Of a DNA stretch of 64,000 nt, positions 253-52,079 are shown piece by piece. The first letter of the stretch is position 1. Every line of letters begins with the position of its first letter. The stretch is from a phage, in sequence record PQ327946.1. One strand, given 5' to 3'. Made by a program: the position numbers and the translations under genes. Under the pieces are notes generated by a model, which saw only the letters and a list, made by a program, of their open reading frames with translations, did no database searches and was not told the DNA's origin.

Positions 253-801
253 TTAACGAGCCCATTTGATAATTTCTGTAATCAAATTATTACGTTCGCT
301 TGCATTAAATCCTATAACTTTGTTAGCACCATCATGATTAAGTAATTGATACGTTTGGATTTCGTTATGAATTGCAAACTCTTCAAAATATGAAATGACT
401 GTATTAAAACCGAATGAAGACAAAGTAATAAGGTCGTCTTCAAAACTTTCAGTCATTTCGTTACGTGTTAAAATAATTGTGAACACATCATGGTTTTGGC
501 AAAGACGAACATAATCCTGTTCATAAACGTCAAGAACCGAGTCCGCATCTTGTCGAATACGTCCATAAACCCAGTTACTAATATATCCACGGTCTAACAG
601 ATAAATCTTAGTAGGGTCTAAATAATTCAACATCGTTTCGAAACAGCCAACTTCATTTCGAGACTTAACATCGAAACGTCCATCAACTGTTCGTTTAAGG
701 AAATCAATCTTTACATATCTTTCACTAATTTCCATTATGTCATTAATGAAAGTTGTTTTACCAGCATTATCCGGGCCATCTACTAAAATAATTTTAGCCA
801 T
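253..801 (-). CDS. P-loop NTPase, small kinase-like protein
   Basis: 182 aa ORF; Walker A GPDNAGKTT near N-terminus; ATG at 801..799. Confidence 0.55.
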   Translation of the reverse strand: MAKIILVDGPDNAGKTTFINDIMEISERYVKIDFLKRTVDGRFDVKSRNEVGCFETMLNYLDPTKIYLLDRGYISNWVYGRIRQDADSVLDVYEQDYVRLCQNHDVFTIILTRNEMTESFEDDLITLSSFGFNTVISYFEEFAIHNEIQTYQLLNHDGANKVIGFNASERNNLITEIIKWAR

Positions 802-802
802 T

Positions 803-1702
803 TTATTCCTCGATTACGACATCTTCATATTTAGGTATATTATACGGTGAAGAAATTAAAGCGTTAAAGTAGATGAACTCACCAAGACCTGGATGGAATA
901 CTTCTTCAGGATTTTCGAAATATTGAATCTTCGGACGTCCTTTAAGAATTTGATAGTACTCAGTTTTAGTTGGATTAAAAATTCGAATCAGCGCTTCTTC
1001 AGGATACTTATTTCTGTCGAAACTATTATTTGGATCAGTTATATAAAGCGGTTGACCTAATTGAATTGCGCATTCAACCACTTGTTCAAAACGATAGCAC
1101 GGGTCACTAATTCGAAATGGATGAAAAATACCATCTAGATGAATAGGAGCCAAATCACCTACAAGACGCTGCATGATGGAAGGACGTATAACTTTCTGCG
1201 TTACGATAATCTTATTACCATCCGCACCAGCGTTAACCAGCACTTCCTTTTGACGTTCATTCAACACAGTAGTTTGAAGTGAACGATTAACCGACAACAT
1301 GTCGGTTTTTAAGAATTCGTCAATATAAAAACGCGGTTTATTAGGGTCTGCGGTGATATTGAAATTGAATTCTACATCAAAAGCACCATCATATCCAGTG
1401 ATATCTGTTATTAGAAAATCACAATCATAATAAGCAATTAATGAATCAACCACAAATTCATTTTCAGACCAGAAATATTTACGAGTGTTATACGCGTTAT
1501 CTTTATACCATAATGGAACAAACTTAAATTCTGGGAAAAGACGTTCACATTCTTTAATATCAGATGCATTACGTGGATATGTAATCACATCACCTGGATT
1601 AGCACGGTGCAAATGAAGTTGGAAGTTGCCATCCTTAAGGATAGCATACTGTCCAGTTTCATAAGACCGCATACTCAAGATAGGTACGCGGAAAATAGCC
1701 AT
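803..1702 (-). CDS. Hypothetical protein in the syntenic slot of T4 beta-glucosyltransferase; candidate novel DNA-modifying transferase
   Basis: 299 aa ORF between uvsX and gene 42; no resemblance to T4 beta-gt as I recall it. Confidence 0.5.
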   Translation of the reverse strand: MAIFRVPILSMRSYETGQYAILKDGNFQLHLHRANPGDVITYPRNASDIKECERLFPEFKFVPLWYKDNAYNTRKYFWSENEFVVDSLIAYYDCDFLITDITGYDGAFDVEFNFNITADPNKPRFYIDEFLKTDMLSVNRSLQTTVLNERQKEVLVNAGADGNKIIVTQKVIRPSIMQRLVGDLAPIHLDGIFHPFRISDPCYRFEQVVECAIQLGQPLYITDPNNSFDRNKYPEEALIRIFNPTKTEYYQILKGRPKIQYFENPEEVFHPGLGEFIYFNALISSPYNIPKYEDVVIEE

Positions 1703-2418
1703 TAGTCAAGGAATCCTTTAACATAATCAAAATCACGTTCAAACACATGGGCACTTACCATGGTATGAGTATAATCACCAACTTCTACACCACATTCGTT
1801 AGCGATATAATGAAGTAATTTTCCTTGGAGATAAAAATCCAACTGCATAACAACAGCACAGTTCTGAGAACGCATATGGCAGTGGGTATAAAGCTTACCA
1901 TCACGAATATAATAAGTCACCGAGTCAGTACATGGATATTCAAGCGTTTCGTCCGAATCAAGCAAAGCCTGATCAGAACTTTCTAGAATTTGGAACACAA
2001 CTCTTCGGGAGTTAGGCTTCTCTTTAAGTTCTTTTAGAAGAGCTGGTAATTGGGCCGCAATGCGAGGACCATAGAAAGTGTTGAAGTTCGCCGGCAAAAC
2101 ATCTGATTTTGGTTTAGAAATAAATTTAGCGACATTAGGATATGCCTTAAACGCTTCTTCTGCGTCAGTACCACCAGAAATCATAAACTTCCAGAAGTCT
2201 TCGGCATATTCATAAGAGATGCGGTTAATACGTGGGTCGGTCATTTTGAATGATGATGGAGTGTCAACAACTACTGTCATAGACCCAATTTCATTACAAC
2301 GTCCAATACGAGAATCAGTTACGAATTCCGGGTTTTCTAAAATTTCACGATTGACTGCTTTAAATGCGGTTTGAAAATCTGCGGCTTTGATATATTTCAT
2401 TGTGTTATGTTTTCCCAT
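1702..2418 (-). CDS. 42: dCMP hydroxymethylase (thymidylate synthase family)
   Basis: 238 aa; ThyA-family motifs YPCTDS and MRSQN; position upstream of gene 43 as in T4. Confidence 0.75.
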   Translation of the reverse strand: MGKHNTMKYIKAADFQTAFKAVNREILENPEFVTDSRIGRCNEIGSMTVVVDTPSSFKMTDPRINRISYEYAEDFWKFMISGGTDAEEAFKAYPNVAKFISKPKSDVLPANFNTFYGPRIAAQLPALLKELKEKPNSRRVVFQILESSDQALLDSDETLEYPCTDSVTYYIRDGKLYTHCHMRSQNCAVVMQLDFYLQGKLLHYIANECGVEVGDYTHTMVSAHVFERDFDYVKGFLD

Positions 2419-2696
2419 GTTTACCTCAATACAATTTATTATATACTCAATTCGTAAAGCTTATTTGAATTTCTTGACAATGTTGATATAACGTAAAGCT
2501 TCAGCATCGATACTTCCAAGAACACTATGAAGAAATGCATCAGCGTAGTATTCCAATTAAACAGGTTCTTTAATCACTTTAGCCGCTTTAGTTTCAAACA
2601 GGCCCATCAGGGCCTTTTTAAGAATTTGTTCGATGCTGTTAATTTTCATAGTCAAAATCTCTTCGTTAAGTTGGTGGTTAAAAGTTTTTCTAGAAA

Positions 2697-3857
2697 TCAT
2701 TCTGGGTACCTCAAAGCGTCGTCAGAGTTAGTTATATCAATAATAGATATAGAATTTTCTGATAACCCATTTTTAGATAACTGACGTTTATAATATCTTT
2801 CACAATATGTACACGTCGTCCCGCAGATTTCATTAGCACAATCGAAATCTGGATGTTTGAACCACCTTTTTTCTAAAAAGCCATCTAACAAAGAGGTTTC
2901 AATATTTACCGTATGTGAAAACTCGGTCTCATTTTCAAGAGTGAAAATGGTCTCTAAAGGCTTCCACAATTCCAACAAATTACCTTCAAATTTTTCGGAA
3001 GCATAAGCTTCAAGAACTTTCAAAATGTAGTCTGTGCTACCTGTACGTCCTGAAACTTTGAATTGAGTGATACCAATATCATTATAAAGTTTCAAATCTT
3101 GAGGACGAACAAAACGAGTTCTCAACCAGTTAAATGGGTCTGTATCACGAGCTTTAATACAGTGCTGCATTGGATACCCATTTAAGGATTTGGCATCATC
3201 TACTGTAACATCGGTGCTATGGAAAATATAGCAAGAGTCACGATAACTACAATGTGTTGTATACCCTTTACCAGCATTAGAACAGAACTCATTTACAAGA
3301 ACTTCAAATATTATATTGTTCTTATTACAAAACTCTGCTGCACGCTTCAGGAAAGAAACTGAACGGTTCTTATGAATTCCGCAGCAGACCTTTTTGATAT
3401 TATATTGGTCATGCAAGTATTTGATTTGAGTTACAGCATCGACATGTAGAATTGTTGAAACTTCAATCTCAATGTCTTTATTGACTTCACGAACAATTTC
3501 CATAACAACAGGGTTAGCGATAGTAATACGCCATACGCCTATTGACCAAAGATACTGAACATAATCCTGAATAGCTTTCTTCTTCCACTCAACTAGTTCT
3601 CTTTTTGAACCAGGATTTATCGTGTTGAGTGTATAGTTAAAGCAAATACCTAATTCGTTACAACGTTTAACGTAGTCTTCTAACATCTTTTTGTCAACGT
3701 CAGGAAGCCTAAAATCAGGTCTGGCTGCTACAAAAGCCATTTCTCTTGTAGAGCCATATACTTCGTTTATCAAGCTATTAGGATAGGTTTTATTGAGCTC
3801 TACGATTTTATCAAGAAGAGCTAAATCAAAATTCGTTCCGATTTTAAAAGTATTCAT
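2697..3857 (-). CDS. U32-like TIM-barrel protein with C-terminal cysteine cluster
   Basis: 386 aa; N-terminal pattern resembles U32 family; C-terminal CANEICGTTCTYC cysteine cluster. Confidence 0.45.
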   Translation of the reverse strand: MNTFKIGTNFDLALLDKIVELNKTYPNSLINEVYGSTREMAFVAARPDFRLPDVDKKMLEDYVKRCNELGICFNYTLNTINPGSKRELVEWKKKAIQDYVQYLWSIGVWRITIANPVVMEIVREVNKDIEIEVSTILHVDAVTQIKYLHDQYNIKKVCCGIHKNRSVSFLKRAAEFCNKNNIIFEVLVNEFCSNAGKGYTTHCSYRDSCYIFHSTDVTVDDAKSLNGYPMQHCIKARDTDPFNWLRTRFVRPQDLKLYNDIGITQFKVSGRTGSTDYILKVLEAYASEKFEGNLLELWKPLETIFTLENETEFSHTVNIETSLLDGFLEKRWFKHPDFDCANEICGTTCTYCERYYKRQLSKNGLSENSISIIDITNSDDALRYPE

Positions 3858-3914
3858 TTTTTTTGCATCCCACGTTAATTGATGCGATGGTTTTTGCAGG
3901 TCTTACTTAAATTA

Positions 3915-4316
3915 TTATAGATTCGGTTTATATGATTTAAATGTTTCGAATTCGCCTTTATTCATAAGAGCTTTGAATTCGTCAGGACGCATAGCTTTGT
4001 CGTCGATAATCCAATCATATACTGGTTTATGTGTTAGCAAATTATGGTACTTCAATCCAATGTTTGCCAAGTTCTGAATCAGACTTGGGAGAATGTCAAT
4101 TGCTATACGACCAGGACCGACTGACTTCATACCGCGAGCAGTGTAAAGCGTTATGGTATGCCCTGCATCATACAGGGCATTAATGGCAGATACCATTTCG
4201 ACGTCTGGTTTGAAGTTCACGTAATCACGATTGTTATTCCACTCTGTTATACAATCATCGACATCAAAACAAAGATTAAGCATGTTTTCTACACGGTGCA
4301 TTAGATTCGTTCCCAT
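3915..4316 (-). CDS. HAD-superfamily phosphatase-like protein (start uncertain)
   Basis: 133 aa ORF; FDVDDCIT fits HAD motif I (DxD); alternative ATG starts at 4301 or 4283. Confidence 0.5.
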   Translation of the reverse strand: MGTNLMHRVENMLNLCFDVDDCITEWNNNRDYVNFKPDVEMVSAINALYDAGHTITLYTARGMKSVGPGRIAIDILPSLIQNLANIGLKYHNLLTHKPVYDWIIDDKAMRPDEFKALMNKGEFETFKSYKPNL

Positions 4317-5986
4317 TGATGAGTGATATCGCCACCGATTGGACGATAAGAAACACCAGTTTCTTTATCAGTTAGTACCCATTTACCAGGATTTTTTGTA
4401 ATCAGAGTAGCCGTTACAGGTTCTGCTACATCATAACTAATAGTGCCGTCCTGAAGTACACGGCCCATGTTACGTAATTGCTTAGTCAGAAGTTCCATAC
4501 CTTTATAATATGCGGCTACCGCTTTAAGTGGATTATTCTTGAAATAACCACCTAATGCAATCCAGATAATTGCTACAGCCAAATGATGATACTCATTAAA
4601 CGAACTCATCTTTCCATATTTGTAAACTAATGGATTGATGTTAATAGTCACATTACAAGTTGTTTCATCAATAGTAAACTGACCCCAGGTCGGATTAGCG
4701 TTGAATTCATCATAACCTGAAACAGCATAAAGCACTTTAGCTTCATCATACAATTTTGGCCCATAAATCTTGGTTTCACCAAAATATCCACGAGGGTCGA
4801 TAAACTTGACTTCACCATTATCAGTAATCATAGTATTACTGAAGTTCGGGTCACCATGAATAACAGAGTACTGTCCCTGAGAACGGTTATGATAACGAAT
4901 AAGGTGTTCTAAAGCTTGTTTCAGCATTGGCTTCAGACGCCCAATCTTAGTGTAGTTCACATGTGTGATTTTACCAAATGAATCAATCAATGGTTGAATA
5001 CTTTCACAACGATCAATAACTTTCGTATAGAATTCTTTAGTGAAATCACGACGAACAGTTTCAGGACTTACAAAATAAGTGTCTGTGCTGAATTTCAGTG
5101 CGTCTAAAATTGCATCAACAATTTGTGGACGAGCAAGACTCGATTTGGATTTAATATATTCAAATGCTGGCTTACCTTTAATGCGTTCCATTTCAAAGTT
5201 ATTTTCATTAACAGAAACTAACTGAGGAACTGAATCTGATTTCACTTTAAGATACCATGAAATCTCATCTTTCTGAAGAGCTCGTCCCTGTTCGGTTAAT
5301 GCGAATTTAGTTACAGTTTCTTCACCAATTTCAACTGCATTAAAACTACGATTAAGTTCACGAACTTCATGAGCTTTTTCAAGTTTAGGCATATCACCTA
5401 AATCAATTAGATTCATAAGCTCTGATTTATTGAATGCGCTGCCGTAAAGGAATTCTACGAAATCACGTCCTTTGCAGTATTCATGAATTTCCTCATCAGT
5501 AGAACCCATATAGAATTCCCAGTCTTTGAACTGATAAATTCCTACAACATTACCACCTGTTGAACCTACGTTAGTGATATTTTCGCCGTCGAAATTATAT
5601 CGACATTCGTCACCCTTAACATAGATTGCGTTAACATTCCAAGACCATGAACCAAAATCAGGAATAATATCACACCAGTTAACAATTACATTATGACCGT
5701 CTAAATCTTTGTGTAATTTAGCAAGAGCATAAGCAGAACCGTACGCTTCATCAACTGTACGAATAGTCACATTGAACCCTTCTTGCTCACAATAAACTCG
5801 AACAGTTTCAGCAAATTTTGAATGAACTACTACAATAATTTCATCTGCGCCAAGGTCAGAATAAATTGTATACAAATTGCTCAGAATAGTGTCTTGTTTA
5901 TAGTTAACAAGCACCTTAGGAATATGATGCGTTATTGGATACAAACGAGTTGCCAGTCCAGCACCAAGAATAACAGCTTTTTTCAT
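4301..5986 (-). CDS. Bifunctional sugar-1-phosphate nucleotidyltransferase / APH-fold sugar kinase
   Basis: 561 aa; N-terminal ILGAGLATRL nucleotidyltransferase signature; C-terminal HGDPNFSN ... DPRG kinase motifs. Confidence 0.6.
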   Translation of the reverse strand: MKKAVILGAGLATRLYPITHHIPKVLVNYKQDTILSNLYTIYSDLGADEIIVVVHSKFAETVRVYCEQEGFNVTIRTVDEAYGSAYALAKLHKDLDGHNVIVNWCDIIPDFGSWSWNVNAIYVKGDECRYNFDGENITNVGSTGGNVVGIYQFKDWEFYMGSTDEEIHEYCKGRDFVEFLYGSAFNKSELMNLIDLGDMPKLEKAHEVRELNRSFNAVEIGEETVTKFALTEQGRALQKDEISWYLKVKSDSVPQLVSVNENNFEMERIKGKPAFEYIKSKSSLARPQIVDAILDALKFSTDTYFVSPETVRRDFTKEFYTKVIDRCESIQPLIDSFGKITHVNYTKIGRLKPMLKQALEHLIRYHNRSQGQYSVIHGDPNFSNTMITDNGEVKFIDPRGYFGETKIYGPKLYDEAKVLYAVSGYDEFNANPTWGQFTIDETTCNVTININPLVYKYGKMSSFNEYHHLAVAIIWIALGGYFKNNPLKAVAAYYKGMELLTKQLRNMGRVLQDGTISYDVAEPVTATLITKNPGKWVLTDKETGVSYRPIGGDITHQWERI

Positions 5987-6167
5987 GTTGTGGTCCTCAT
6001 TGGTAAGTAGGAGTATTGTACACTATTCTAGTTAAAGCATTCATACTTTGCTTGTAGTCCAATCATAATCCATCCGATTATAAGAGTCGGAATCATTACT
6101 GGAGCCGTTAAGCTCCAGTAGATAGTCATGACAAGCATCAATAGTAAAAGTCCTATTGTTATTGCTT

Positions 6168-6803
6168 TCATTGTTCGCCTCGTAACATGGCACCTAGTGC
6201 ACCGCCAGGGTGGAACTTAAGGAAGTCATTAGAGGTAAATCCACGTTCAGACGAAAGGTTGATAGCAAACGTATCGATAAGCGCTAACAACAATGTAGTG
6301 GACATAGTCGGAGCCAGAGAATTCTCATCAACCTCTACTGCGATGCCTGTACAGAACGTATAATCAAAAAGAGCTTCGTATTCTTGTGGAATGTCTGGGT
6401 TACAATGCAACAGAATCTGTTTGACGTTCGGACGAATCATTTTAAGATGCTTAGCCACGCCTATCATTTCTTCAGTTTTACCAGAACGACTAATATGAAT
6501 CAACACATCATTAGGCGCAATGAATCCTGCATCACCGTGAGAATAATGCCCGGTGTTCAAGTACATACTCGGGATACCGAGTGAAGCAAATGTCTCAGAA
6601 GCTTTAGTTGCGATATTAGCGTTCTTACCAACACCTGTAATAATTACACGACTTTCATAATTACTAAGTCCTGGGCGTCGAAGAGTTTCTAGAATAGCAT
6701 TATAACGAGCAGGGTTTTGACTAATTACTTTGGCCATAGCGGCCAAAGAAGAAGCTTGTTTTATGATTGCGTCAATAGCGATAGTAATAGGAGTAGTTTT
6801 CAT
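6168..6803 (-). CDS. SIS-domain sugar-phosphate isomerase
   Basis: 211 aa; ITGVGKNANIA ... HISRSGKTEE pattern typical of SIS domains. Confidence 0.6.
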   Translation of the reverse strand: MKTTPITIAIDAIIKQASSLAAMAKVISQNPARYNAILETLRRPGLSNYESRVIITGVGKNANIATKASETFASLGIPSMYLNTGHYSHGDAGFIAPNDVLIHISRSGKTEEMIGVAKHLKMIRPNVKQILLHCNPDIPQEYEALFDYTFCTGIAVEVDENSLAPTMSTTLLLALIDTFAINLSSERGFTSNDFLKFHPGGALGAMLRGEQ

Positions 6804-13035: not shown

Positions 13036-13752
13036 ATGAATTATAACTCAATATACGAAAAGCTTATCGCCAATGCTAAATCAAGAAGTTTAGATGGTTA
13101 TACAGAACGTCATCACATTATACCACAATGTTTAGGTGGAAGTGATGATGCTTTAAACTTAGTAGACTTAACACCGGAAGAACATTATTTGGCACATCAA
13201 CTGTTGGTCAAAATCCATCCAGATAATGCCTCTTTAATATATGCCGCTCGTATGATGACAATATCATCTCCTAAAGCAGATAGAAGCAAAAACAAATTAT
13301 TTGGATGGCTTCGACGTAAGAATCAAGAAGTTCAAAAGAACAAAGAATTCACTGCTGAAACCCGTAAGAAAATGTCTGAAGCCGCTTTAAAGAGACCAAA
13401 GATTACCTGTCCACATTGTAATAAATCTGGATACGTTTCTAACATGCGTCGTTGGCATTTCGACAACTGTAAGCATGGACCCAACAAGTGTGTACATACT
13501 ATACCTGAATCACAAAAGCAAAAAATAAAAGACGGGTTAAAGAATGTGGTTCACACTATAGTCCAATGCCGGTATTGTAACATGGAAGGTATAAAGTGTG
13601 TTATAGCAGCACATGAAAAATTCTGTAAATCAAATCCCAATAGAAAGAAAAAAGAGGACAAGAAAATTCAGTGTCCTCATTGTGATAAAATAGGAATCCC
13701 TGCTAATATGTATCGTTGGCATTTTGATAATTGTAAACACAAGCCTCATTAA
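13036..13752 (+). CDS. HNH homing endonuclease with tandem C-terminal zinc-finger repeats
   Basis: 238 aa; HHIIPQCLGG ... EEHYLAHQ HNH motif; two repeats CPHC.K.G...NM.RWHFDNCKH; opposite strand to all neighbours. Confidence 0.75.
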   Translation: MNYNSIYEKLIANAKSRSLDGYTERHHIIPQCLGGSDDALNLVDLTPEEHYLAHQLLVKIHPDNASLIYAARMMTISSPKADRSKNKLFGWLRRKNQEVQKNKEFTAETRKKMSEAALKRPKITCPHCNKSGYVSNMRRWHFDNCKHGPNKCVHTIPESQKQKIKDGLKNVVHTIVQCRYCNMEGIKCVIAAHEKFCKSNPNRKKKEDKKIQCPHCDKIGIPANMYRWHFDNCKHKPH

Positions 13753-15688: not shown

Positions 15689-15917
15689 TACATGCTTCAG
15701 CCATTTTAAGAATAGAACCAGGAGTATCGTTGTCCATTATATTAAAGCTAAATTCAATAGCCCAGTCGGTGCAGACATGAACTGCTTTAACTTCATTGCC
15801 TTCAACGCGTAATGGCTCAATCCAATACTTGATAGCGTTCTCAAATCCATCATCGTCTTTAACGTCCATTTCAACTTCAAGTCCAAGCCCAGCATTGTTA
15901 AATTCATCTAAAGTCAT
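15660..15917 (-). CDS. 46.2: Hypothetical small acidic protein
   Basis: 85 aa ORF between 46 and 47. Confidence 0.45.
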   Translation of the reverse strand: MTLDEFNNAGLGLEVEMDVKDDDGFENAIKYWIEPLRVEGNEVKAVHVCTDWAIEFSFNIMDNDTPGSILKMAEACIEDAYNDED

Positions 15918-16933
15918 TGTGTTGCCTCAATATAAAGTTCGTTGGAATATTTGACCAGCGCTTCTCTGTCTTCGTCTGAGATATCTGGAATCGCGTCAAT
16001 ATATTCTTTAATGATATCTTGAAGTGATTTAATCTCGATTTCCTGGTCGTCATCAGATTCAACACTGTTATCAACTTTAGAAACCATACGAAGAGAGTGA
16101 ACTACTTTTTCAAGTTCAGATTCAAACTTAGTCAACTCTGAATCAATTTCTGATACTATAACACGTATGGCTAGATTAGTATAATCAGAATAATTGATTT
16201 TGCCTTTAAACGGATAAGTGATTCGTCGATGCCATGTTGTTTCATTAGGAATAAATTCCATACGTTCAACATCAGTGTCAAATACCCAGAATCCGCGTGG
16301 GTCGTTCTCATCACCTGCAGTAAGTGTCCACGGTGTCCCAATATATTTGACGTTAGCAGCTTCAGAGATTGTGTGGAAGTGGCCGGACCAGACTTGTTTA
16401 TAGGTCTTTAAGAAATCAGGTTCAAGCCCATGAGACTTCATTCCTTTATAGAAATAAAAGCCGTTCAGTTCCCAGTGACCAACACAATACGCCGCGGAAG
16501 AAGTCTTGATGTGCTCTAAGATTTCACCTGTATTTTCTTCACACATCCATGGAATGATATCAATCAGACATCCGTCAAAATCTACAGTAGTTGGATGTTC
16601 GTAAATAGTAAAGTTTTCAAATTGAGTTAACAATTCAGAAACAGTGTTAGGTGTTATTGTATTCTTAAACGCCATGTCATGGTTTCCTATCGTGACATGA
16701 ACGTGAATGCCTGCTTTAGAAATCATATCAACGATTTCACGATTGAATTCCATCGTACGATGTGTAATTGCTTTACGGACGTCAAACCAATCACCGTACT
16801 GAATCCAAGTTTTAATCCCGTGTTTCTTAGAGTATTCAATTGCTTGACGAATACCATCACGTTGAATATCTTGAACCCATGGGTCGTCTTGTTTGACTCC
16901 GATATGGAAGTCGCCTAAGTGCAAAATTTTCAT
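15914..16933 (-). CDS. 47: Recombination nuclease subunit (SbcD/Mre11-like phosphoesterase)
   Basis: 339 aa; calcineurin-like motifs GDFH, GNHD. Confidence 0.9.
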   Translation of the reverse strand: MKILHLGDFHIGVKQDDPWVQDIQRDGIRQAIEYSKKHGIKTWIQYGDWFDVRKAITHRTMEFNREIVDMISKAGIHVHVTIGNHDMAFKNTITPNTVSELLTQFENFTIYEHPTTVDFDGCLIDIIPWMCEENTGEILEHIKTSSAAYCVGHWELNGFYFYKGMKSHGLEPDFLKTYKQVWSGHFHTISEAANVKYIGTPWTLTAGDENDPRGFWVFDTDVERMEFIPNETTWHRRITYPFKGKINYSDYTNLAIRVIVSEIDSELTKFESELEKVVHSLRMVSKVDNSVESDDDQEIEIKSLQDIIKEYIDAIPDISDEDREALVKYSNELYIEATQ

Positions 16934-17215
16934 ATTATTTCCTCATTAGTTAATTCATTCTATCATCCGTTTATAAAGCAAAAAAGGAACTCCGAAGAGT
17001 TCCTATCCACATAGTACACCGTACAGAGGCTCATTTGAACTTTTAAATCGAATGGGCTTGTATGTAATAGTTCCTTCGGCTTTAGCTTTATCATAAGACT
17101 CTTTAAAACGTCTCATTCTTTCTGCTTTGCCTTTACGGATTTTATCGAAATTTTCAGAAGTCTGGGTGTTCGTCATGCATAATCACCTCTCAGAAAATAC
17201 CTAAATCGATTTCTC

Positions 17216-17437
17216 TCATCGTTTCCACCATTTCTTAACTTGAAATGAATCAACCCACACGAGTTGTTTTGGGTCTGCCTTTACAATAGGTGGACAAATT
17301 TCTGTAATAGAACTGTCGTGATATTCCTTTTCAGAGATTTTAACACAAAGAGGACCTCCCAATTTAATGGAGAATCCTGCGTTCAGATTAAGACGTTTAA
17401 ACTTTGTTTGAACTAGCGCCATTAATGATGTCCTCAA
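17216..17437 (-). CDS. Hypothetical protein (alpha-gt slot)
   Basis: 73 aa ORF. Confidence 0.3.
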   Translation of the reverse strand: MRTSLMALVQTKFKRLNLNAGFSIKLGGPLCVKISEKEYHDSSITEICPPIVKADPKQLVWVDSFQVKKWWKR

Positions 17438-17720
17438 TAGCCTGACGAGTAGTAATCCACTGGATTTTAATTAACTTGTCATTATATGGTTGTCGTAGAA
17501 TATCCCGAGATTTCTTAATAGCATATTCATAAGCTTCGAAGTTGTTTTGAATTGCTGCTTCTTGAGCATGAGCATAAAGACGGTTTAGTTCAAAACGATT
17601 CTTTTTAAGAATCTTTTCGGATTTTTTACGTGCTTCAGCTTCATTTTTCTTTTGGATTTCTTGTAGCATTTTAGCTACTGCATCTTCTGCTTCTTTATTT
17701 TCAATAATCTCGGTAGTCAT
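17397..17720 (-). CDS. Hypothetical protein (alpha-gt slot)
   Basis: 107 aa ORF, charged/helical. Confidence 0.4.
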   Translation of the reverse strand: MTTEIIENKEAEDAVAKMLQEIQKKNEAEARKKSEKILKKNRFELNRLYAHAQEAAIQNNFEAYEYAIKKSRDILRQPYNDKLIKIQWITTRQAIEDIINGASSNKV

Positions 17721-17721
17721 A

Positions 17722-17931
17722 TTATCTCATTAAATTAAAATAAAAACGTCCATCCTCTTCAATACAGAACTCATACTCAACCGGAGTCCCATTTATCGAA
17801 AATGACACGTCATGTGGGTTCAAAGGGTCGATGTCAAAATTAATTTTAAATTCACGACCCAACAGTTTTACCAAATAAGGGATTGCTTCGTCAAAAGGTT
17901 CTTCTAAGTAGTTAGAGATGTCAATTGTCAT
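17722..17931 (-). CDS. Hypothetical protein (alpha-gt slot)
   Basis: ORF trimmed to ATG at 17931, just after gp55 stop. Confidence 0.4.
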
Positions 17932-18496
17932 CCTCATATAAAAAATCCAAACTAGGCGAATCGCTAACAACTTCCTTCTTTTCAGCCCCAGGAGCTTTAT
18001 AAGCGGATTCTTCATAATGCGTCATTTTATCGTAGATGTCTTGAATAAACGTTTCATCTACCAACGCTACCATATCATCGTCATGACTGTCGTAGACATT
18101 ATGAACGAAGTAACTATATTTCTTTGCAACTTCCTTACGTTCTTTTTTGATACGTTGGACAAAAGCATTAAAACAAGCTCGAGTTATGTATGCATGTGGG
18201 TTATTGTACTTAGTTTCGTCGAAATTATGAAGTCCCTTAATAGAGGCTTCAATCCCATCTGCAATCATCTCCTGCTTCCAAGACTGGGTATATCCTGAAA
18301 AGTTGAAACGTTTGGACAGGCCTTCGGCGATAAGCATAATTGCTAAACCGATGGTATCATTCTGACGAATAATTTTGTTTGGGTCTTTATTATTTAAGAG
18401 CTCCTTTTTCCACTCGATTATAGCGGCGAGAAGCTCTTTATTATTCACATAGTTATTTTTAGGTTTTTGTTCAGTCATAAGTACCTCTTGGCTCAA
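17921..18496 (-). CDS. 55: Late-transcription sigma factor
   Basis: 191 aa; sequence closely resembles T4 gp55 as I recall it. Confidence 0.85.
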
Positions 18497-31739: not shown

Positions 31740-32753
31740 TCATTTATAGTACGAATTGTGGTTTTCTAAGTAAACTTGTTCAAGGAAGTCATCCCAGAAA
31801 CTCATATCTACTTTTTGCTGCATACCATTCTTAGCGGCTTGTTCTGACGCATGTTCTACCTGGTCAACAATATCTTCCAGGAATTCTTGTACAGTTTTAA
31901 ACGTATGTTTACCAAGCTTAACATCGAGAATAAATGGAGCATCTTGAAGCGGGTAAACCAGGTCGCCGGTTTTGTAAATTTCCAATAATTGAAGTCCACC
32001 ACGGCATGCATGACTCAATGCTTTCCAGTCAATACCTTCGTTAGCTTCTGCCTTACGAGCACGTTCACCGTATTCGGCATCAAGTTTATTCAAAGACTGC
32101 TTAAGCTCAATAAGAGAAAGTGTTGTCTGATATTTACGACCCAACACAGTGTAGAACGTTTGTGGGCCGGTTTTCTCATGATTATGGAATACCCATTCAC
32201 AAAACTCGTTTTCAGGGAGTCGGTGTTTGATATCTTCTACCTTAGTTCGGCGTAAACGATCTGGAATTCCCTCTTGGTAATCAACCCACTGGTCAGGGAT
32301 TTGATTAACTACTTTCAATACATCACGTAATGCGGCCAATCGAGAACCCTTGACGCCATATTTAGAAGCTTGCTTACGGACATACCCTAAATAAGATTTC
32401 ATGTTAGTAGTATAGAAACGAGACCTGTTGTCTCGAATATACTTCCACACGTCAGGCAAATCAGATTTAACTACTAAACTTGGTGGAGTGTGAAGCATAT
32501 CTAATGCGACTGTTTCACCATCTGCAGCTAGTTTAAAGAAATATTTGAGACTATACAACTCATGGTCCACGTCGTCTTTTGTGTTCTTAGAAGACGTGTT
32601 ATTCGTGTTCTTGCTCATATGTTCTTTAACGTTACCGGTCAAGATATCACGAGCATGAGGGACGTAAATTTCTTTAAAATCGACGTCAGATTCAGGAGTA
32701 GACGTTCCATAAAGGTGACTACCAAAATAAGTTTTCACAATTGTTTTCATCAT
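31740..32753 (-). CDS. Pol-beta superfamily nucleotidyltransferase-like protein
   Basis: 337 aa; N-terminal GS ... SDVDF minimal NTase motif. Confidence 0.5.
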   Translation of the reverse strand: MMKTIVKTYFGSHLYGTSTPESDVDFKEIYVPHARDILTGNVKEHMSKNTNNTSSKNTKDDVDHELYSLKYFFKLAADGETVALDMLHTPPSLVVKSDLPDVWKYIRDNRSRFYTTNMKSYLGYVRKQASKYGVKGSRLAALRDVLKVVNQIPDQWVDYQEGIPDRLRRTKVEDIKHRLPENEFCEWVFHNHEKTGPQTFYTVLGRKYQTTLSLIELKQSLNKLDAEYGERARKAEANEGIDWKALSHACRGGLQLLEIYKTGDLVYPLQDAPFILDVKLGKHTFKTVQEFLEDIVDQVEHASEQAAKNGMQQKVDMSFWDDFLEQVYLENHNSYYK

Positions 32754-34108: not shown

Positions 34109-34324
34109 CTACCGATTATGTTTTAAAATGCTATAAAGAGCTTCTACTTGGCTTGCATCCAGGTAAATAACATCATCATCTTGCTCAATGGAAATCCCAC
34201 CAGTATTACCTGCAACAAAATTACATTCACATACTTCAACTGGGCGGTATACGTCACCAACTGGATGCTCAGGTTCCAGAACAATCACACCATTTTCAAA
34301 ATTACCACTTGGGTCATACAGCAT
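34109..34324 (-). CDS. Small protein, MLYD family paralog 1
   Basis: ATG at 34324; MLYDPSGNFENGVIVLEPE parallels neighbour. Confidence 0.45.
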   Translation of the reverse strand: MLYDPSGNFENGVIVLEPEHPVGDVYRPVEVCECNFVAGNTGGISIEQDDDVIYLDASQVEALYSILKHNR

Positions 34325-34415
34325 TACAGTTTCCTCGCTAACCATGAAAAGAATAAACCAATTAAAACAGGCCCTATAGCCATTGTTAACCAAGCCCAAG
34401 GTTCAAGATAGTAAA

Positions 34416-34580
34416 TCATCTCATGCTCCTGTGCCAACAGTTTCTTGGTTCACGTTTAAAAATTTCATCACGCATTGATTGACAACCAACACAAAACATC
34501 ACTACCATATCATCTTCAGCGCTTTCAGGTAAAAGTTCAAGTACACCGTCTTCAGATTTTCCAGTATAATCGTAAAGCAT
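34416..34580 (-). CDS. Small protein, MLYD family paralog 2
   Basis: ATG at 34580; MLYDYTGKSEDGVLELLPE; CxxC pair. Confidence 0.45.
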   Translation of the reverse strand: MLYDYTGKSEDGVLELLPESAEDDMVVMFCVGCQSMRDEIFKREPRNCWHRSMR

Positions 34581-35428: not shown

Positions 35429-36005
35429 ACAACCCTGTCAAATCATTCCAATGCTTCCGGCATAATGACACATATCTATCGGTATCACCAATTTCAATTT
35501 GACTGCCATCTGTAATTGGAAGTCCGTCTTCCGTGACTCTAGCTACCATTGTGGCCTTTTTACCACAATGACAGACACCTTTAAGTTCAACAAGCTTATC
35601 GGCAATAGCCATTAATGCTTGAGAACCTTCAAATAGATTACCTTTAAAATCTGTTCGTAGTCCATATGCCATTACCGGCACATTGTATACGTCAACAATA
35701 CGACTAAGTTGATACACCTTTTCAGTAGTTAAGAACTGAGCTTCGTCAACAAATACACAATGAATATCCTTTTGTGCTGCAGCCCATTTATAGAATTCAA
35801 AGATATCCATGTCTTTTGTAATTATATTGGCATCCTGACGAATACCAATACGAGAGACTATTTCACCTTTTGAATCACGAGTATCAATAGCCGGTTTAAG
35901 AACTAATACACCCATGCCACGTTCTTTATAGTTGTGTGCGGCTGTAAGTAATGAAGCAGACTTACCAGCGTTCATAGCGGCGTATGTAAAAATTAAACTC
36001 GCCAT
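35424..36005 (-). CDS. tk: Thymidine kinase
   Basis: 193 aa; P-loop AMNAGKS; zinc ribbon CHCGKKA. Confidence 0.9.
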   Translation of the reverse strand: MASLIFTYAAMNAGKSASLLTAAHNYKERGMGVLVLKPAIDTRDSKGEIVSRIGIRQDANIITKDMDIFEFYKWAAAQKDIHCVFVDEAQFLTTEKVYQLSRIVDVYNVPVMAYGLRTDFKGNLFEGSQALMAIADKLVELKGVCHCGKKATMVARVTEDGLPITDGSQIEIGDTDRYVSLCRKHWNDLTGLL

Positions 36006-36006
36006 T

Positions 36007-36195
36007 TTAATCCTTAGTTAAATTTTCTAAATATGTTTTTAAATCATTTTCAGCTTTATCGATAGATTTTACTAATTCGTAATATGTTTCGGCATCTCCA
36101 TATTCAGAAGATATTTCAAAAGACAAATCCTTTTCTAAACTAATAATTTCACCAACTAAAAATAATATTTCGTTCTTTTGTTCGCGAGTAATCAT
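36007..36195 (-). CDS. Small protein, paralog pair member
   Basis: 62 aa; similar spacing of EQK ... EY.EL.K to neighbour. Confidence 0.4.
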   Translation of the reverse strand: MITREQKNEILFLVGEIISLEKDLSFEISSEYGDAETYYELVKSIDKAENDLKTYLENLTKD

Positions 36196-36383
36196 AAGGA
36201 ATTTATATAATTAATAAGTTCTTGTTCTTTATTATCGAATTCTTTAGAAAGTTCTTCGTACTCGTTTGCACTAAAAGGACCGCATTCATTACAAACTTTT
36301 TCCAATTCACTATTTTTATCCATAACTTCGTGGATAAGAGAAAAGAGTTTGTCTTTTTGTTCTTTACTTAAACTCATAACCAT
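36192..36383 (-). CDS. Small protein, paralog pair member
   Basis: 63 aa ORF. Confidence 0.4.
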   Translation of the reverse strand: MVMSLSKEQKDKLFSLIHEVMDKNSELEKVCNECGPFSANEYEELSKEFDNKEQELINYINSL

Positions 36384-38454: not shown

Positions 38455-38753
38455 TACTCTTTGAAAGGAATTAACTTTTTAACTGCTTTAGATACTTCGT
38501 CACGAACCTGGTGGAAGTTCTTGAGCTGTTCAAGGCGTTGTTCGTAATACGCAATCTCATCTTCTTCAAGACAATCGTCAGCGTCTTCTTTCAGATATGC
38601 CTTGTACTCATTAAAGAGGGCCCATAGGCGATTCTCAAAGTCATCAAGGCTTTGAATTTTCTTGTGCTTCGGAACAAGGCCAAAAGGATTGCTTTCAGTT
38701 ATGCGTCGAGATGCTTCATAATGAGTTCCAAAGCCTGATAGGATTTGAGCCAT
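38454..38753 (-). CDS. Hypothetical protein
   Basis: ATG at 38753 overlapping upstream stop. Confidence 0.4.
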
Positions 38754-39019
38754 TAGTATTTTTCCTCTGGTCGAAATACCGCACGGCATGCCCACATGCT
38801 GGCTTCTTTTAGATGTTGCTTAGCATACTTAAGAGCCTGCACTGCATCCATATCTTCTTTGGTTTGTTGCTCTGATTCATTTTCTTTCAAGATATATGCT
38901 TCTTCAATCAGAGCATCAAACATCAATCCAAGACGGACTTCTGCGTCTTTAATAGCGTTCACTTTACTGATTTTATCATCGGTATGTGGCTTGTAGCCTT
39001 TGATGTCTTCAATCGACAT
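38753..39019 (-). CDS. Hypothetical protein
   Basis: ATG at 39019 with SD GAGGAAA. Confidence 0.4.
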
Positions 39020-40446: not shown

Positions 40447-40718
40447 TTTGTTCTCTCTAAGTTTGGGCCATTCCATGGCACATGAATTGTCCATTTCTGT
40501 ATTTACCCATTACCGCACTTGGGCTCGACCTTATTACAGGTTGGCGGGAATCCCTCATAGAATCATGAGGTCCAGCTTGTTCCCATGTTATTTGAATGTA
40601 AATATTTTTGCCTTAATACTTATACCAGTGTGGCTTCATTAAAATTTTTTCATCGAGTCATTTTACCTCTCCAAGTAATTATGATTATACTATCACAATT
40701 CTAGGAGAAAGTAAACTG

Positions 40719-41021
40719 TTATTTACCTTTAATTACTTTAGCTGCTTCGATAGCCGCTTGCTGAAGGTCATCCATAGACATACCGAATTTAGAAGCAAAG
40801 TTATCAATTTTCTTTTCAACAGCATTCAAAGGCTTGGCCTGTTTACCTTCATTAGCGCCAGGAAGAGCGAGAATACGCTCTTTGTCAATATAAAGGCTTA
40901 CAAGTTTCTTACGGTCTTTATCGGACAAATCGTGAAATGAATGGGCCTTTTTATTTATAGCGGCTTCTAATTTACCTGCACTCACTCGCGCTTCAGTAAT
41001 AAATTCTTGATATGTTTTCAT
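40719..41021 (-). CDS. Internal protein candidate with capsid targeting sequence (IPII/IPIII-like)
   Basis: 100 aa; N-terminus MKTYQEFITEA matches the T4 internal-protein targeting sequence. Confidence 0.55.
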   Translation of the reverse strand: MKTYQEFITEARVSAGKLEAAINKKAHSFHDLSDKDRKKLVSLYIDKERILALPGANEGKQAKPLNAVEKKIDNFASKFGMSMDDLQQAAIEAAKVIKGK

Positions 41022-41112
41022 TTTTGTTTCCTTGTTTGTTTTGATAGAGTAATTATACCATATTAATACTTAAGCGTAAACTGTTTAAGCTTTACCATCG
41101 CAACCTTTTTCC

Positions 41113-47057: not shown

Positions 47058-47461
47058 CTTATTTCCTTAACGAATTCCATAGCTTCTTCATATTCATACT
47101 TTTTAACAGCTTCATCATACTGAGCTTGGGCTTTTGCGCACTGAACTTTCCATTCTCTTAATCGGGCTCTGTGATGGCGTCCTTGGTACCAATATCCCAC
47201 CCAGTTAATAGGCATTAATAAAAATGGTACAATAAACGACCCGGCTATAATAAGTAAAAACACTGCATCAGACGATATAACTTTATTGGAATCTAAAATA
47301 GCTCCTATAATCATAAAGATTAAAAATGCTAAAGCTAAAATAGGGCCAAATAGTACTTCATTTGGGATTAATTTACGCTTGTATTCATACGCCCAGGGCT
47401 TACTTGGCATGTATAGGGTTGGCTTTGACATATTCTCTACATTCCATAATAAATTGCTCAA
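47036..47461 (-). CDS. Membrane protein
   Basis: 141 aa with two hydrophobic helices. Confidence 0.45.
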   Translation of the reverse strand: MSNLLWNVENMSKPTLYMPSKPWAYEYKRKLIPNEVLFGPILALAFLIFMIIGAILDSNKVISSDAVFLLIIAGSFIVPFLLMPINWVGYWYQGRHHRARLREWKVQCAKAQAQYDEAVKKYEYEEAMEFVKEIRCKSLNS

Positions 47462-48017
47462 GGATTAAATTGTTAGTGAAATTAGGACTAACAACCATGG
47501 TTTCATAAAGCGCATCAATAGCACTTAAAGCATCAACTCTTTTAAGCAAAGGCTTGCCTTCATACATAGTTTCAGAATCGACGATTAACGTAAAGTAATA
47601 TTTTTTATTATTGACCAGAACTTCTGTATCAATATAAAACATGTTAGATCTTAAAAGCTTGTCTCTAAAGCCTACGTAATCATCTGAACGTTCGCTGATA
47701 TATTCCCATTCAGTGTTTAAACAACAAACAGACCACGTAGGAGCAACGAAATCAGTGAATCTAATATCATGGTCTGCAACTAGTTTAGCAATAGCTCCGA
47801 TATCATGAATCATAATACCTGGGGCTAATAAAGATTTTCGGCGATTTGCATATTCAGTTGTCTCATAAGAAGACGACCAGTACCATTTACGTCCAGTTGC
47901 AACATGTCGTAATGAATCAACTAAAGACGTAGGTGGATTTACCTTATCTCGGAACTCTTCGAACATTGAGTCAATATCATTATTTTGGTTTCGCATGTTA
48001 ACTCCTTTATTATCCAA
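47400..48017 (-). CDS. Hypothetical protein
   Basis: 205 aa ORF. Confidence 0.45.
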   Translation of the reverse strand: MDNKGVNMRNQNNDIDSMFEEFRDKVNPPTSLVDSLRHVATGRKWYWSSSYETTEYANRRKSLLAPGIMIHDIGAIAKLVADHDIRFTDFVAPTWSVCCLNTEWEYISERSDDYVGFRDKLLRSNMFYIDTEVLVNNKKYYFTLIVDSETMYEGKPLLKRVDALSAIDALYETMVVSPNFTNNLILEQFIMECREYVKANPIHAK

Positions 48018-49367: not shown

Positions 49368-49400
49368 ATCTTTATGAAATATTTTTATGCCCTAGATACC

Positions 49401-49427
49401 AAAAAGCCCCAACCGTAAGGAAGGGGC
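49401..49427 (-). terminator. Rho-independent terminator (repeat family copy 2)
   Basis: Same GCCCC...GGGGC hairpin plus U-run as 34834..34861. Confidence 0.6.
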
Positions 49428-49433
49428 ATTCTA

Positions 49434-49898
49434 TTATTTAATTTGTTTAGCAGACCAGATACGGTCTTTAATAAGTTTTTGGATATCTTCAACATACTCG
49501 AGGCTATGAGCGTGAGGATTATCTTTGAAGCTATGTGCTCGTGCCAGTTTCCGGCCTTCTGTTTTGATTACTAAAAGCTCTTTAAGAATTGCTTCATACT
49601 TAGAAATAATTCCTTTGGCGATATTTTTTTCTTGAGCGGCTTTAGGGTCCGCTTTTGGCGTAGGTGCTTTACCTGTAGCTTTTTGGAACAATTCACCTGA
49701 TGCAGCTAGGCTTTTAAAAACTCGGCTAACAGTATTAGCATTAGTAAAACCTTCGGCTTTAAAATCTCTAATAAAACGGAAACGTTCTTCATCAGAGGCG
49801 TCTTTGTAAGAATATTTACCTGCTTGAATTGCTGCAATCGCAGCGGCTTTTACATCTGAACTAGATTGTTCAGTCAAAAATTCAGCGTATGATTTCAT
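49434..49898 (-). CDS. Internal-protein-like protein with capsid targeting sequence
   Basis: 154 aa; N-terminus MKSYAEFLTEQ; flanked by terminators. Confidence 0.5.
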   Translation of the reverse strand: MKSYAEFLTEQSSSDVKAAAIAAIQAGKYSYKDASDEERFRFIRDFKAEGFTNANTVSRVFKSLAASGELFQKATGKAPTPKADPKAAQEKNIAKGIISKYEAILKELLVIKTEGRKLARAHSFKDNPHAHSLEYVEDIQKLIKDRIWSAKQIK

Positions 49899-49942
49899 GT
49901 TGCTTTTCCTAAGTTAATTAACTTATCTATTTATTATTATAC

Positions 49943-49971: not shown

Positions 49972-50024
49972 TATGCCTTGCGGCAACCTTGTCGGGGTTC
50001 CACCTGCTAAGGCAAGTGTTTGTA

Positions 50025-50048
50025 CGAAACGCCGGGATTCGAACCCGG
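50025..50048 (-). other. tRNA-like T-arm/acceptor remnant
   Basis: Minus strand CCGGG-TTCGAAT-CCCGG; no convincing D or anticodon arm found by hand. Confidence 0.3.
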
Positions 50049-50283
50049 TTATTAAGCAGTTGACACTACTCAATATTTTTAAAAGGCCATATCTCGACCA
50101 TATCCGAACGTTCCGTCAAAAACGCTACTCGGCTTACGGCAAAGATATTTCCTCGAATCGATAATTCTGTGCGCCGTTTCTGCTGTGATGTAAGGGGATA
50201 TTAACGAATCATAAAGATTTATTAAGACCAGTCCTTACACAGGGAACATCAGTCCGACGACTTGCCGGTAGCGACCCGGCTTC

Positions 50284-50646: not shown

Positions 50647-50723
<77 letters not shown>

Positions 50724-50729
50724 AATATA

Positions 50730-50803
50730 TGACCCAGACCAGATTCGAACTGGTAACCTTTCCCTTATGAGGGGACTGCTGCTAACCATTGAGCTACAGG
50801 GCC
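50730..50803 (-). tRNA. tRNA with anticodon CAU (Met or lysidine-Ile), non-canonical D arm
   Basis: Acceptor GGCCCTG/CTGGGTC, T arm ACCAG-TTCGAAT-CTGGT, loop CTCATAA; 6 nt downstream of tRNA-Arg. Confidence 0.6.
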
Positions 50804-51402: not shown

Positions 51403-51693
51403 TCACCGTACCATATTAATGTAATTATATTCAATGCAACGTAATTTCAAAGGGTTCTTGAAAATATCATATTCAAGAGGGCCTGATTCAGTTTCAATAA
51501 AGAAATCAAAGTTAACTGTGTTAAATTTATCATCTTCACAGAGTAATTTAACCTGTGAAGACGAACGGTCGATGTAAACCTTTTCAACTTCAAAACATGT
51601 TAAAATGCCATAATCATCAATCAAGGCTTTAGCTGCTTCTTGATCATATTTATATCCATTTTCAATGGATGATACTTTCGCATAAAGAATCAT
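51403..51693 (-). CDS. Hypothetical protein
   Basis: 96 aa ORF. Confidence 0.4.
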   Translation of the reverse strand: MILYAKVSSIENGYKYDQEAAKALIDDYGILTCFEVEKVYIDRSSSQVKLLCEDDKFNTVNFDFFIETESGPLEYDIFKNPLKLRCIEYNYINMVR

Positions 51694-51695
51694 TA

Positions 51696-52079
51696 TTAAC
51701 CTTTATCAACAATAGTATGTGTATGGGCATTTACGATTTGCCACCAGTCAAAACTATCGCCAAATCGTTTTGATTTATTGTCTTCAATAATTTGGCGTAA
51801 TTCATCTTCAGTAGCGGCTTTCGCGATTAAATCAGCATATCCACCACGAGGATAATAATTATCACCTGCAAAAAGTAAAAAGTTTGGTTTAATATTATTA
51901 AACTCTTCAAGAGTAATAACTGTTCCACCAGGTTGAACAATATCTACATAACTATATCCTAATTTTTGAGCAGCATCTACTGCTTCAAGCAGGGTATCAT
52001 GAGCCCATCCAATTTGGCAATCTGGCTTTTCAGATGGATTAGCCTGATAATCCGCGTACACTTTATACATTCTATTCAC
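51696..52079 (-). CDS. Hypothetical protein
   Basis: 127 aa ORF. Confidence 0.45.
   Translation of the reverse strand: MNRMYKVYADYQANPSEKPDCQIGWAHDTLLEAVDAAQKLGYSYVDIVQPGGTVITLEEFNNIKPNFLLFAGDNYYPRGGYADLIAKAATEDELRQIIEDNKSKRFGDSFDWWQIVNAHTHTIVDKG

Follow-up and report, generated by a model that had tools for sequence, protein, structure and literature searches.

The locus lies on the minus strand of the window, as the 64-kb (64,000-nucleotide) stretch of record PQ327946.1 that was analyzed is called here. Its downstream border is gene 47 (15914-16933), which encodes an SbcD-like recombination nuclease subunit (phrog_100, Metallophos) with 76% amino acid identity to T4 gp47 over 339 aa. The upstream border is gene 55 (17921-18478), which encodes the late sigma factor (phrog_234) and is 91% identical to T4 gp55 by tblastn and 89% identical by global alignment. 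Mechanical translation gave three minus-strand ORFs in this region, at 17216-17437 (73 aa), 17397-17720 (107 aa) and 17722-18015 (97 aa). A preliminary description of this DNA had reported three ORFs of about 70-107 aa between genes 47 and 55; ORFs were indeed found at that span, but the number of genes is four, the a-gt.2 orthologue at 17003-17176 having been missed.

The four small genes, all on the minus strand, are orthologous to the T4 genes a-gt.2 to a-gt.5. The gene at 17003-17176 encodes a 57-aa protein with 75% amino acid identity to T4 a-gt.2 (E = 4e-23; DUF5486, phrog_2140) and lies next to the 68-aa a-gt.3 orthologue at 17216-17422 (69% identity, E = 1e-28; phrog_1648). The 107-aa a-gt.4 orthologue at 17397-17720 has 58% identity to its T4 counterpart (E = 4e-32) and belongs to DUF2654 (PF10849, E = 1.6e-27; phrog_951), and the a-gt.5 orthologue at 17722-17937, of 69-71 aa, has 47% identity to full-length T4 a-gt.5 (E = 1e-14; PF17595, DUF5491, phrog_1169). 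When the T4 proteins were used as tblastn queries, the matched spans were 17006-17161 (a-gt.2), 17222-17416 (a-gt.3), 17418-17708 (a-gt.4) and 17725-17937 (a-gt.5). Pfam scores of 95.9 bits for DUF2654 and 48.2 bits for DUF5491 exceeded the curated cut-offs of 25 and 27, respectively. For a-gt.3, a-gt.4 and a-gt.5, family membership was shown by a full-length match combined with a same-strand position between a-gt.2 and gene 55.

At two starts, those of a-gt.3 and a-gt.5, the true genes are likely to be shorter than the mechanical ORFs. The mechanical ORF of a-gt.3 reaches a TTG at 17437, and the ATG at 17422 gives a protein of 68 aa, as in the annotation of relatives. The T4-like start of a-gt.5 at 17937 gives 71 aa, and the equivalent of the start annotated in phages RB69 and F2, at 17931, gives 69 aa; a start at 18015 would overlap gene 55 by 95 nt. 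Compared to T4, the dN/dS ratios were 0.23 for a-gt.2, 0.15 for a-gt.3 and 0.18 for a-gt.4, and these are therefore real genes under purifying selection; for a-gt.5, at 49% amino acid identity, dS was saturated.

The T4 reference used was NC_000866. This record was chosen because OZ209023, which is labelled Escherichia phage T4, is an a-gt deletion mutant (locus tags T4MUT_ALPHAGT) in which a 138-nt remnant is annotated as alpha-glucosyltransferase, a trap if it is taken as the T4 reference. The T4 order is 47, 47.1, a-gt, mobB, a-gt.2, a-gt.3, a-gt.4, a-gt.5, 55, so that the four small genes and their borders, 47 and 55, are orthologous in the two phages and alike in order and orientation. 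In RB69 (Mosigvirus RB69, NC_004928) the gene order 47, a-gt.2, a-gt.3, a-gt.4, a-gt.5, 55 and its spacing are identical to the window, and the RB69 record annotates the a-gt.2 and a-gt.3 orthologues under those names. In the Klebsiella Jiaodavirus Mineola the a-gt.2 to a-gt.5 block precedes and adjoins a-gt. The three ORFs had been placed in the position of the T4 alpha-glucosyltransferase gene, but they are not stand-ins for a-gt, because T4 carries a-gt.3, a-gt.4 and a-gt.5 as well, between a-gt and gene 55. Nor can they serve, as had been suggested, as support for a type of DNA modification, since they are kept in the glucosylating phage T4 and in Jiaodavirus, which bears a-gt. The a-gt.N names denote a position on the T4 map and have no functional implication; these genes are kept with or without a-gt, and their function is therefore independent of glucosylation.

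Searches of PDB sequences with a-gt.3, a-gt.4 and a-gt.5 returned nothing useful, and in the full-text literature no functional study was found for a-gt.2 to a-gt.5 or for DUF2654. The homologue search for a-gt.3 gave four clusters only, and the AlphaFold2 (AF2) model built from a five-sequence alignment had a pLDDT of 42 and was discarded. Between 16800 and 18700 no structured-RNA match to Rfam was obtained at E≤1. Sigma-70-like promoter matches were not above chance (nine found, compared to 6.7 ± 2.6 expected from shuffled sequences).

The true empty a-gt position is the 69-bp spacer between a-gt.2 and gene 47, at 16934-17002 on the minus strand, the sequence of which was read directly. Unlike Tequatrovirus and Jiaodavirus, the window has no a-gt gene between a-gt.2 and 47, only this spacer. 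Nucleotide similarity to T4 runs from gene 55 down to 16970 (position 5703 of the T4 locus extract) and picks up again at 16935 (extract position 3450), immediately before the start codon of gene 47 at 16933. In between, the window has 34 unmatched bases and T4 has 2252 bp, which hold mobB, a-gt and 47.1. On the minus strand the spacer reads, in order, the a-gt.2 stop codon, a hairpin, a T-run, TTTGCTTTA, 11 nt, TAGAAT, GAGGAA and the ATG of gene 47. The hairpin, found at 17004-16985 by a terminator scan, has the form AGGAACTC-ttcg-GAGTTCCT, is followed by the T-run and overlaps the a-gt.2 stop codon. The MotA-box-like TTTGCTTTA is at 16982-16974 and, after an 11-nt spacer, TAGAAT is at 16962-16957, with GAGGAA as the ribosome-binding site. 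In T4, MotA-dependent middle promoters have the form TGCTTtA placed 11-13 nt upstream of TAnnnT. Judged by their motifs, the two elements of the junction are a putative terminator and a putative middle promoter.

By alignment, RB69 and Mineola each have one copy of this hairpin and promoter module, located after a-gt in Mineola, and T4 has two copies, one following a-gt.2 and the other following a-gt. The T4 modules, at 5670-5760 and 3560-3640 of the locus extract (NC_000866), each consist of a GC-hairpin, a T-run, GCTTTATA and TAnAAT and bracket mobB and a-gt; the window module is at 16957-17004. In the single copy of the window and of RB69, the left half matches the first T4 copy and the right half resembles the second. 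The 69-bp junction of RB69 differs from that of the window by one base over the aligned stretch. The single, hybrid-looking copy suggests, without proving it, that the cassette was gained or lost by recombination at this site. It is conceivable, although we regard it as rather doubtful, that the module is the recombination joint for gain and loss of the a-gt cassette, with the corollary that a-gt.2 to a-gt.5 would form an early or middle module that is independent of DNA modification and perhaps acts in host takeover or anti-defence. Promoter and stem-loop cassettes have been proposed to shuffle modules in T4-type genomes, which is analogous to reading the module as a joint. The mobB gene has been described as a free-standing HNH endonuclease gene that lies as an insertion between a-gt and a-gt.2 and is preceded by a non-coding promoter of its own (PMC2988022).

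The best matches of the window were RB69-like phages (F2, PhAPEC2, HX01, APCEc01, NHEP10, HY126 and Mosigvirus mar005p1), and nucleotide identity was 97-99% to many phages of this type, including NHEP10, F2, HY126 and mar005p1. NHEP10, the complete genome of which was used for whole-genome checks, is among the closest relatives, with approximately 97% nucleotide identity and collinearity with the whole window. RB69 is a different isolate from the window phage. On these identities the window is assigned to Mosigvirus, as an RB69-like member of the T4 family. Across 47-55, phage F2 (NC_054913) matches the window at 99% identity and shows the RB69-type layout, yet its record is filed under Tequatrovirus, not Mosigvirus.

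Several stretches of the window had no blastn match to NHEP10 (32088-32335, 34150-34491, 36005-36372, 38464-38891, 40544-41106, 49373-49923 and 51693-52018), and the segment 32335-34150 was only 89% identical to it; the unmatched stretches probably represent variable spots for accessory genes. A 238-aa HNH homing endonuclease (phrog_655), the N-terminal 96 aa of which are 50% identical to T4 MobB, is encoded on the plus strand at 13036-13752, between 45.2 and 46 and on the strand opposite to them, its 3' end overlapping the gene 46 stop by 4 nt. NHEP10 also carries this gene; in RB69 its place is taken by a gap of just 54 bp, and phage F2 carries another HNH gene in its stead, located between 46 and 46.2. 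ARAGORN called a 95-nt tRNA-like gene on the minus strand at 50022-50116, with the unusual four-base anticodon ttta; it lies upstream of the genes for tRNA-Arg and tRNA-Met (50647-50803), the two normal tRNAs and the only ones reported by Rfam at the gathering threshold.

The statement that both T-even glucosyltransferase genes are missing was borne out. In tblastn searches of the window, the best match was E = 0.53 over 16 aa for T4 a-gt (400 aa), E = 4.8 for T4 b-gt and E = 0.57 for the T2-type ba-gt from RB27. The whole-genome search for a-gt and b-gt that had been put forward as a check was run on the complete, approximately 97% identical NHEP10 genome and likewise returned no homologue at the sequence level, the best values being E = 3.7 for b-gt, E = 0.83 for ba-gt and E = 0.042 for a-gt, the last over 69 aa at 27% identity. 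This a-gt match (NHEP10 3334-3513, residues 18-86 of T4 a-gt) was rejected, since it lies in a 200-aa phrog_2607 protein that is too short for a glycosyltransferase and since the orthologue of that protein in the window (47400-48017) had no a-gt match. No a-gt or b-gt was found in RB69 by BlastP (Thomas et al. 2018, PMC6024577). For the part of this exact phage outside the 64-kb window, we infer the absence of both genes from this one genome and from the RB69 literature. In the phage collection a-gt was present in 657 records, and the identity bands were those usually seen for Tequatrovirus and for Klebsiella phages.

The absence of a-gt could in principle reflect a recent deletion or a mutation acquired in the laboratory by a phage that otherwise glucosylates its DNA. 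Such a strain exists in the database as the T4 mutant OZ209023, with a-gt reduced to a 138-nt remnant, and the repeated hairpin and promoter module that bounds the slot could mediate a deletion. However, the 47-55 arrangement of the window is common to approximately 147 records, independent isolates at 95-99% identity, and to the RB69 reference, and the 34 unmatched bases hold no a-gt remnant. Furthermore, b-gt, ba-gt and an orthologue of gp42 are absent as well, and a full arabinosylation cluster is present. A recent deletion is therefore very improbable, and a lineage that lacks the glucosyltransferase genes is the preferred reading.

The cytosine arabinosylation cluster occupies 253-6803 on the minus strand, between uvsX and gene 43, and consists of homologues of RB69 gp45-gp55 (ORF045c-055c) with 95-99.6% amino acid identity. 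RB69 has ORF045c-055c between the same two genes, and the window has all of them; T4 has segA, b-gt, 42, imm and imm.1 there. In the window, on the minus strand throughout, the cluster comprises a kinase gene (253-801), a gene for a 299-aa GT-B transferase (803-1702; 99% identical to RB69 046+047, gp46:47), a thymidylate-synthase homologue that by homology would be a 5-hydroxy-dCMP synthase (1702-2418; Pfam thymidylate-synthase domain; 99.6% identical to RB69 gp48), a small ORF (approximately 2464-2700), a U32-like protein gene (2697-3857; Pfam Peptidase_U32), a phosphatase-like protein gene (3915-4316; phrog_1238), a gene for a 561-aa nucleotidyltransferase and kinase fusion (4301-5986; NTP_transferase with a kinase-like C-terminal part), a second small ORF (approximately 6031-6138) and an arabinose-5-phosphate isomerase gene (6168-6803; SIS domain). 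The proteins proposed to supply NDP-arabinose (isomerase, phosphatase and kinase/nucleotidyltransferase) are 99% identical to their RB69 homologues. Each of the RB69 pairs 046c/047c and 052c/053c corresponds to one intact ORF in the window, of 299 aa (803-1702) and 561 aa (4301-5986), respectively. These intact ORFs agree independently with the published frameshift sequencing errors in the RB69 record.

The protein encoded at 803-1702 had no match in Pfam or in a PDB sequence search, so its GT-B glycosyltransferase fold was assigned by structure prediction (AF2, 52-sequence alignment, pLDDT 95). In a Foldseek search the top match of the model was MshA (3c4q), and the top matches, 3c4q and 6kih, were those published for RB69 gp46:47. 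The T4 DNA alpha-glucosyltransferase is also a GT-B enzyme (PDB 1y6f/1xv5), but it has 12% sequence identity to the 803-1702 protein with no sequence-level match, and approximately thirty bacterial GT-B enzymes match the model better than T4 a-gt does. The two also differ in length (400 aa for T4 a-gt, 299 aa here), in locus, since 803-1702 is in the b-gt/42 region, and, by homology, in sugar and acceptor base. The fold-level GT-B relative in the window is the proposed arabinosyltransferase of the lineage.

Since this GT-B enzyme escapes recognition by Pfam and a fold does not reveal sugar specificity, it might also be supposed that this enzyme, a small ORF or some other protein of the window is a cryptic glucosyltransferase that has diverged strongly, and that glucose is still used. 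The small proteins, however, at 57-107 aa are much shorter than a GT-A or GT-B fold requires, and they occur in T4 alongside its glucosyltransferases. The 803-1702 enzyme is near-identical to gp46:47 of RB69, the DNA of which has arabinose and not glucose, and its gene neighbours encode the arabinose-5-phosphate isomerase and the proposed NDP-arabinose enzymes, with no glucose pathway. Continued use of glucose is thus hardly credible, and arabinose is the sugar that these data favor.

The identity of the modified base was considered separately. RB69 DNA was reported to carry an arabose-type sugar (arabinose) instead of glucose, in a modification called ara-hmC (Thomas et al. 2018, PMC6024577). 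Because that study read the base as hmC, base identity rests on later mass spectrometry, NMR and enzymology. RB69 cytosines were identified by MS/MS and NMR as 5-hydroxycytosine in mono- and di-arabinosylated form, with an ether bond to the sugar at O5, gp45-gp55 were described as the RB69 modification cluster, gp48 was found to make 5-hydroxy-dCMP, apparently with a flavin cofactor and O2, and comparative genomics suggested conservation of the trait in Mosigvirus and in further genera of the Straboviridae (Lee et al. 2026, PMC13326640). The published RB69 nucleoside ions are m/z 376 and 508.

An alternative is that the phage makes arabinosyl-hydroxymethylcytosine and that its thymidylate-synthase homologue is a dCMP hydroxymethylase like T4 gp42. 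This is how the 2018 study described the RB69 modification; in the RB69 record, ORF048c is annotated as resembling dCMP hydroxymethylase, and the window synthase does belong to the thymidylate synthase superfamily. That synthase, however, is only 25% identical to T4 gp42 and is near-identical to PDB 9iqc/9ir2 (E = 1.6e-161). At 99.6% identity it corresponds to RB69 gp48, the expression of which yields 5-hydroxy-dC with 18O2 incorporation, and the base fragment from RB69 DNA was m/z 128 (5hoC) and not 142 (hmC), with arabinose on O5 by NMR (PMC13326640). The hydroxymethyl alternative is accordingly improbable. From homology, we infer that the window phage makes the same DNA as RB69, in which case its base is probably not hmC. 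The modification had been predicted to be a non-glucose form of hmC: the non-glucose sugar is upheld, arabinose being that of the RB69 lineage (PMC6024577), whereas the hmC part does not agree with the gp48-type synthase and 5-hydroxycytosine (PMC13326640).

On the 5-hydroxycytosine reading, the thymidylate-synthase homologue would form 5-hydroxy-dCMP, and the arabinose-5-phosphate isomerase, the phosphatase and the kinase/nucleotidyltransferase would supply NDP-arabinose. The GT-B transferase encoded at 803-1702 would add the first arabinose, and a second glycosyltransferase, encoded outside the window, would add the second. The individual glycosyltransferase and sugar-pathway steps are proposals for the authors of the RB69 study also (PMC13326640). 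In NHEP10 the second glycosyltransferase belongs to the RB69 gp3 type and is nearly identical to the HY126 glycosyltransferase with a solved structure, 9iqz.

In summary, the window very probably represents a lineage without either T-even glucosyltransferase gene, in which a-gt.2 to a-gt.5 are retained beside gene 55 and protection comes from the arabinosylation cluster at 253-6803. Both glucosyltransferase genes would be missing because the phage arabinosylates its cytosines by means of this cluster. That RB69-type phages lack a-gt and b-gt and have an arabinose modification is already known, having been published in 2018, with the chemistry and the cluster added by 2026; the only mildly new detail is the single, hybrid-looking copy of the hairpin and middle-promoter-like module. 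The analysis places the window taxonomically and shows a-gt.N to be a positional name, and it carries the warning that the cytosine modification of RB69-type phages should not be annotated as hmC-based. Annotation of the base matters in phage therapy candidates, for which sensitivity to restriction, to CRISPR and to modification-dependent defence systems is to be predicted.

When compared to the RB69/DLP3-type pathway (PMC13326640, PMC6024577), the dCTPase was not located, and the gp3-type second transferase lies outside the 64-kb window and was seen only in NHEP10. The window encodes near-identical counterparts of all gp45-gp55 components of that pathway.
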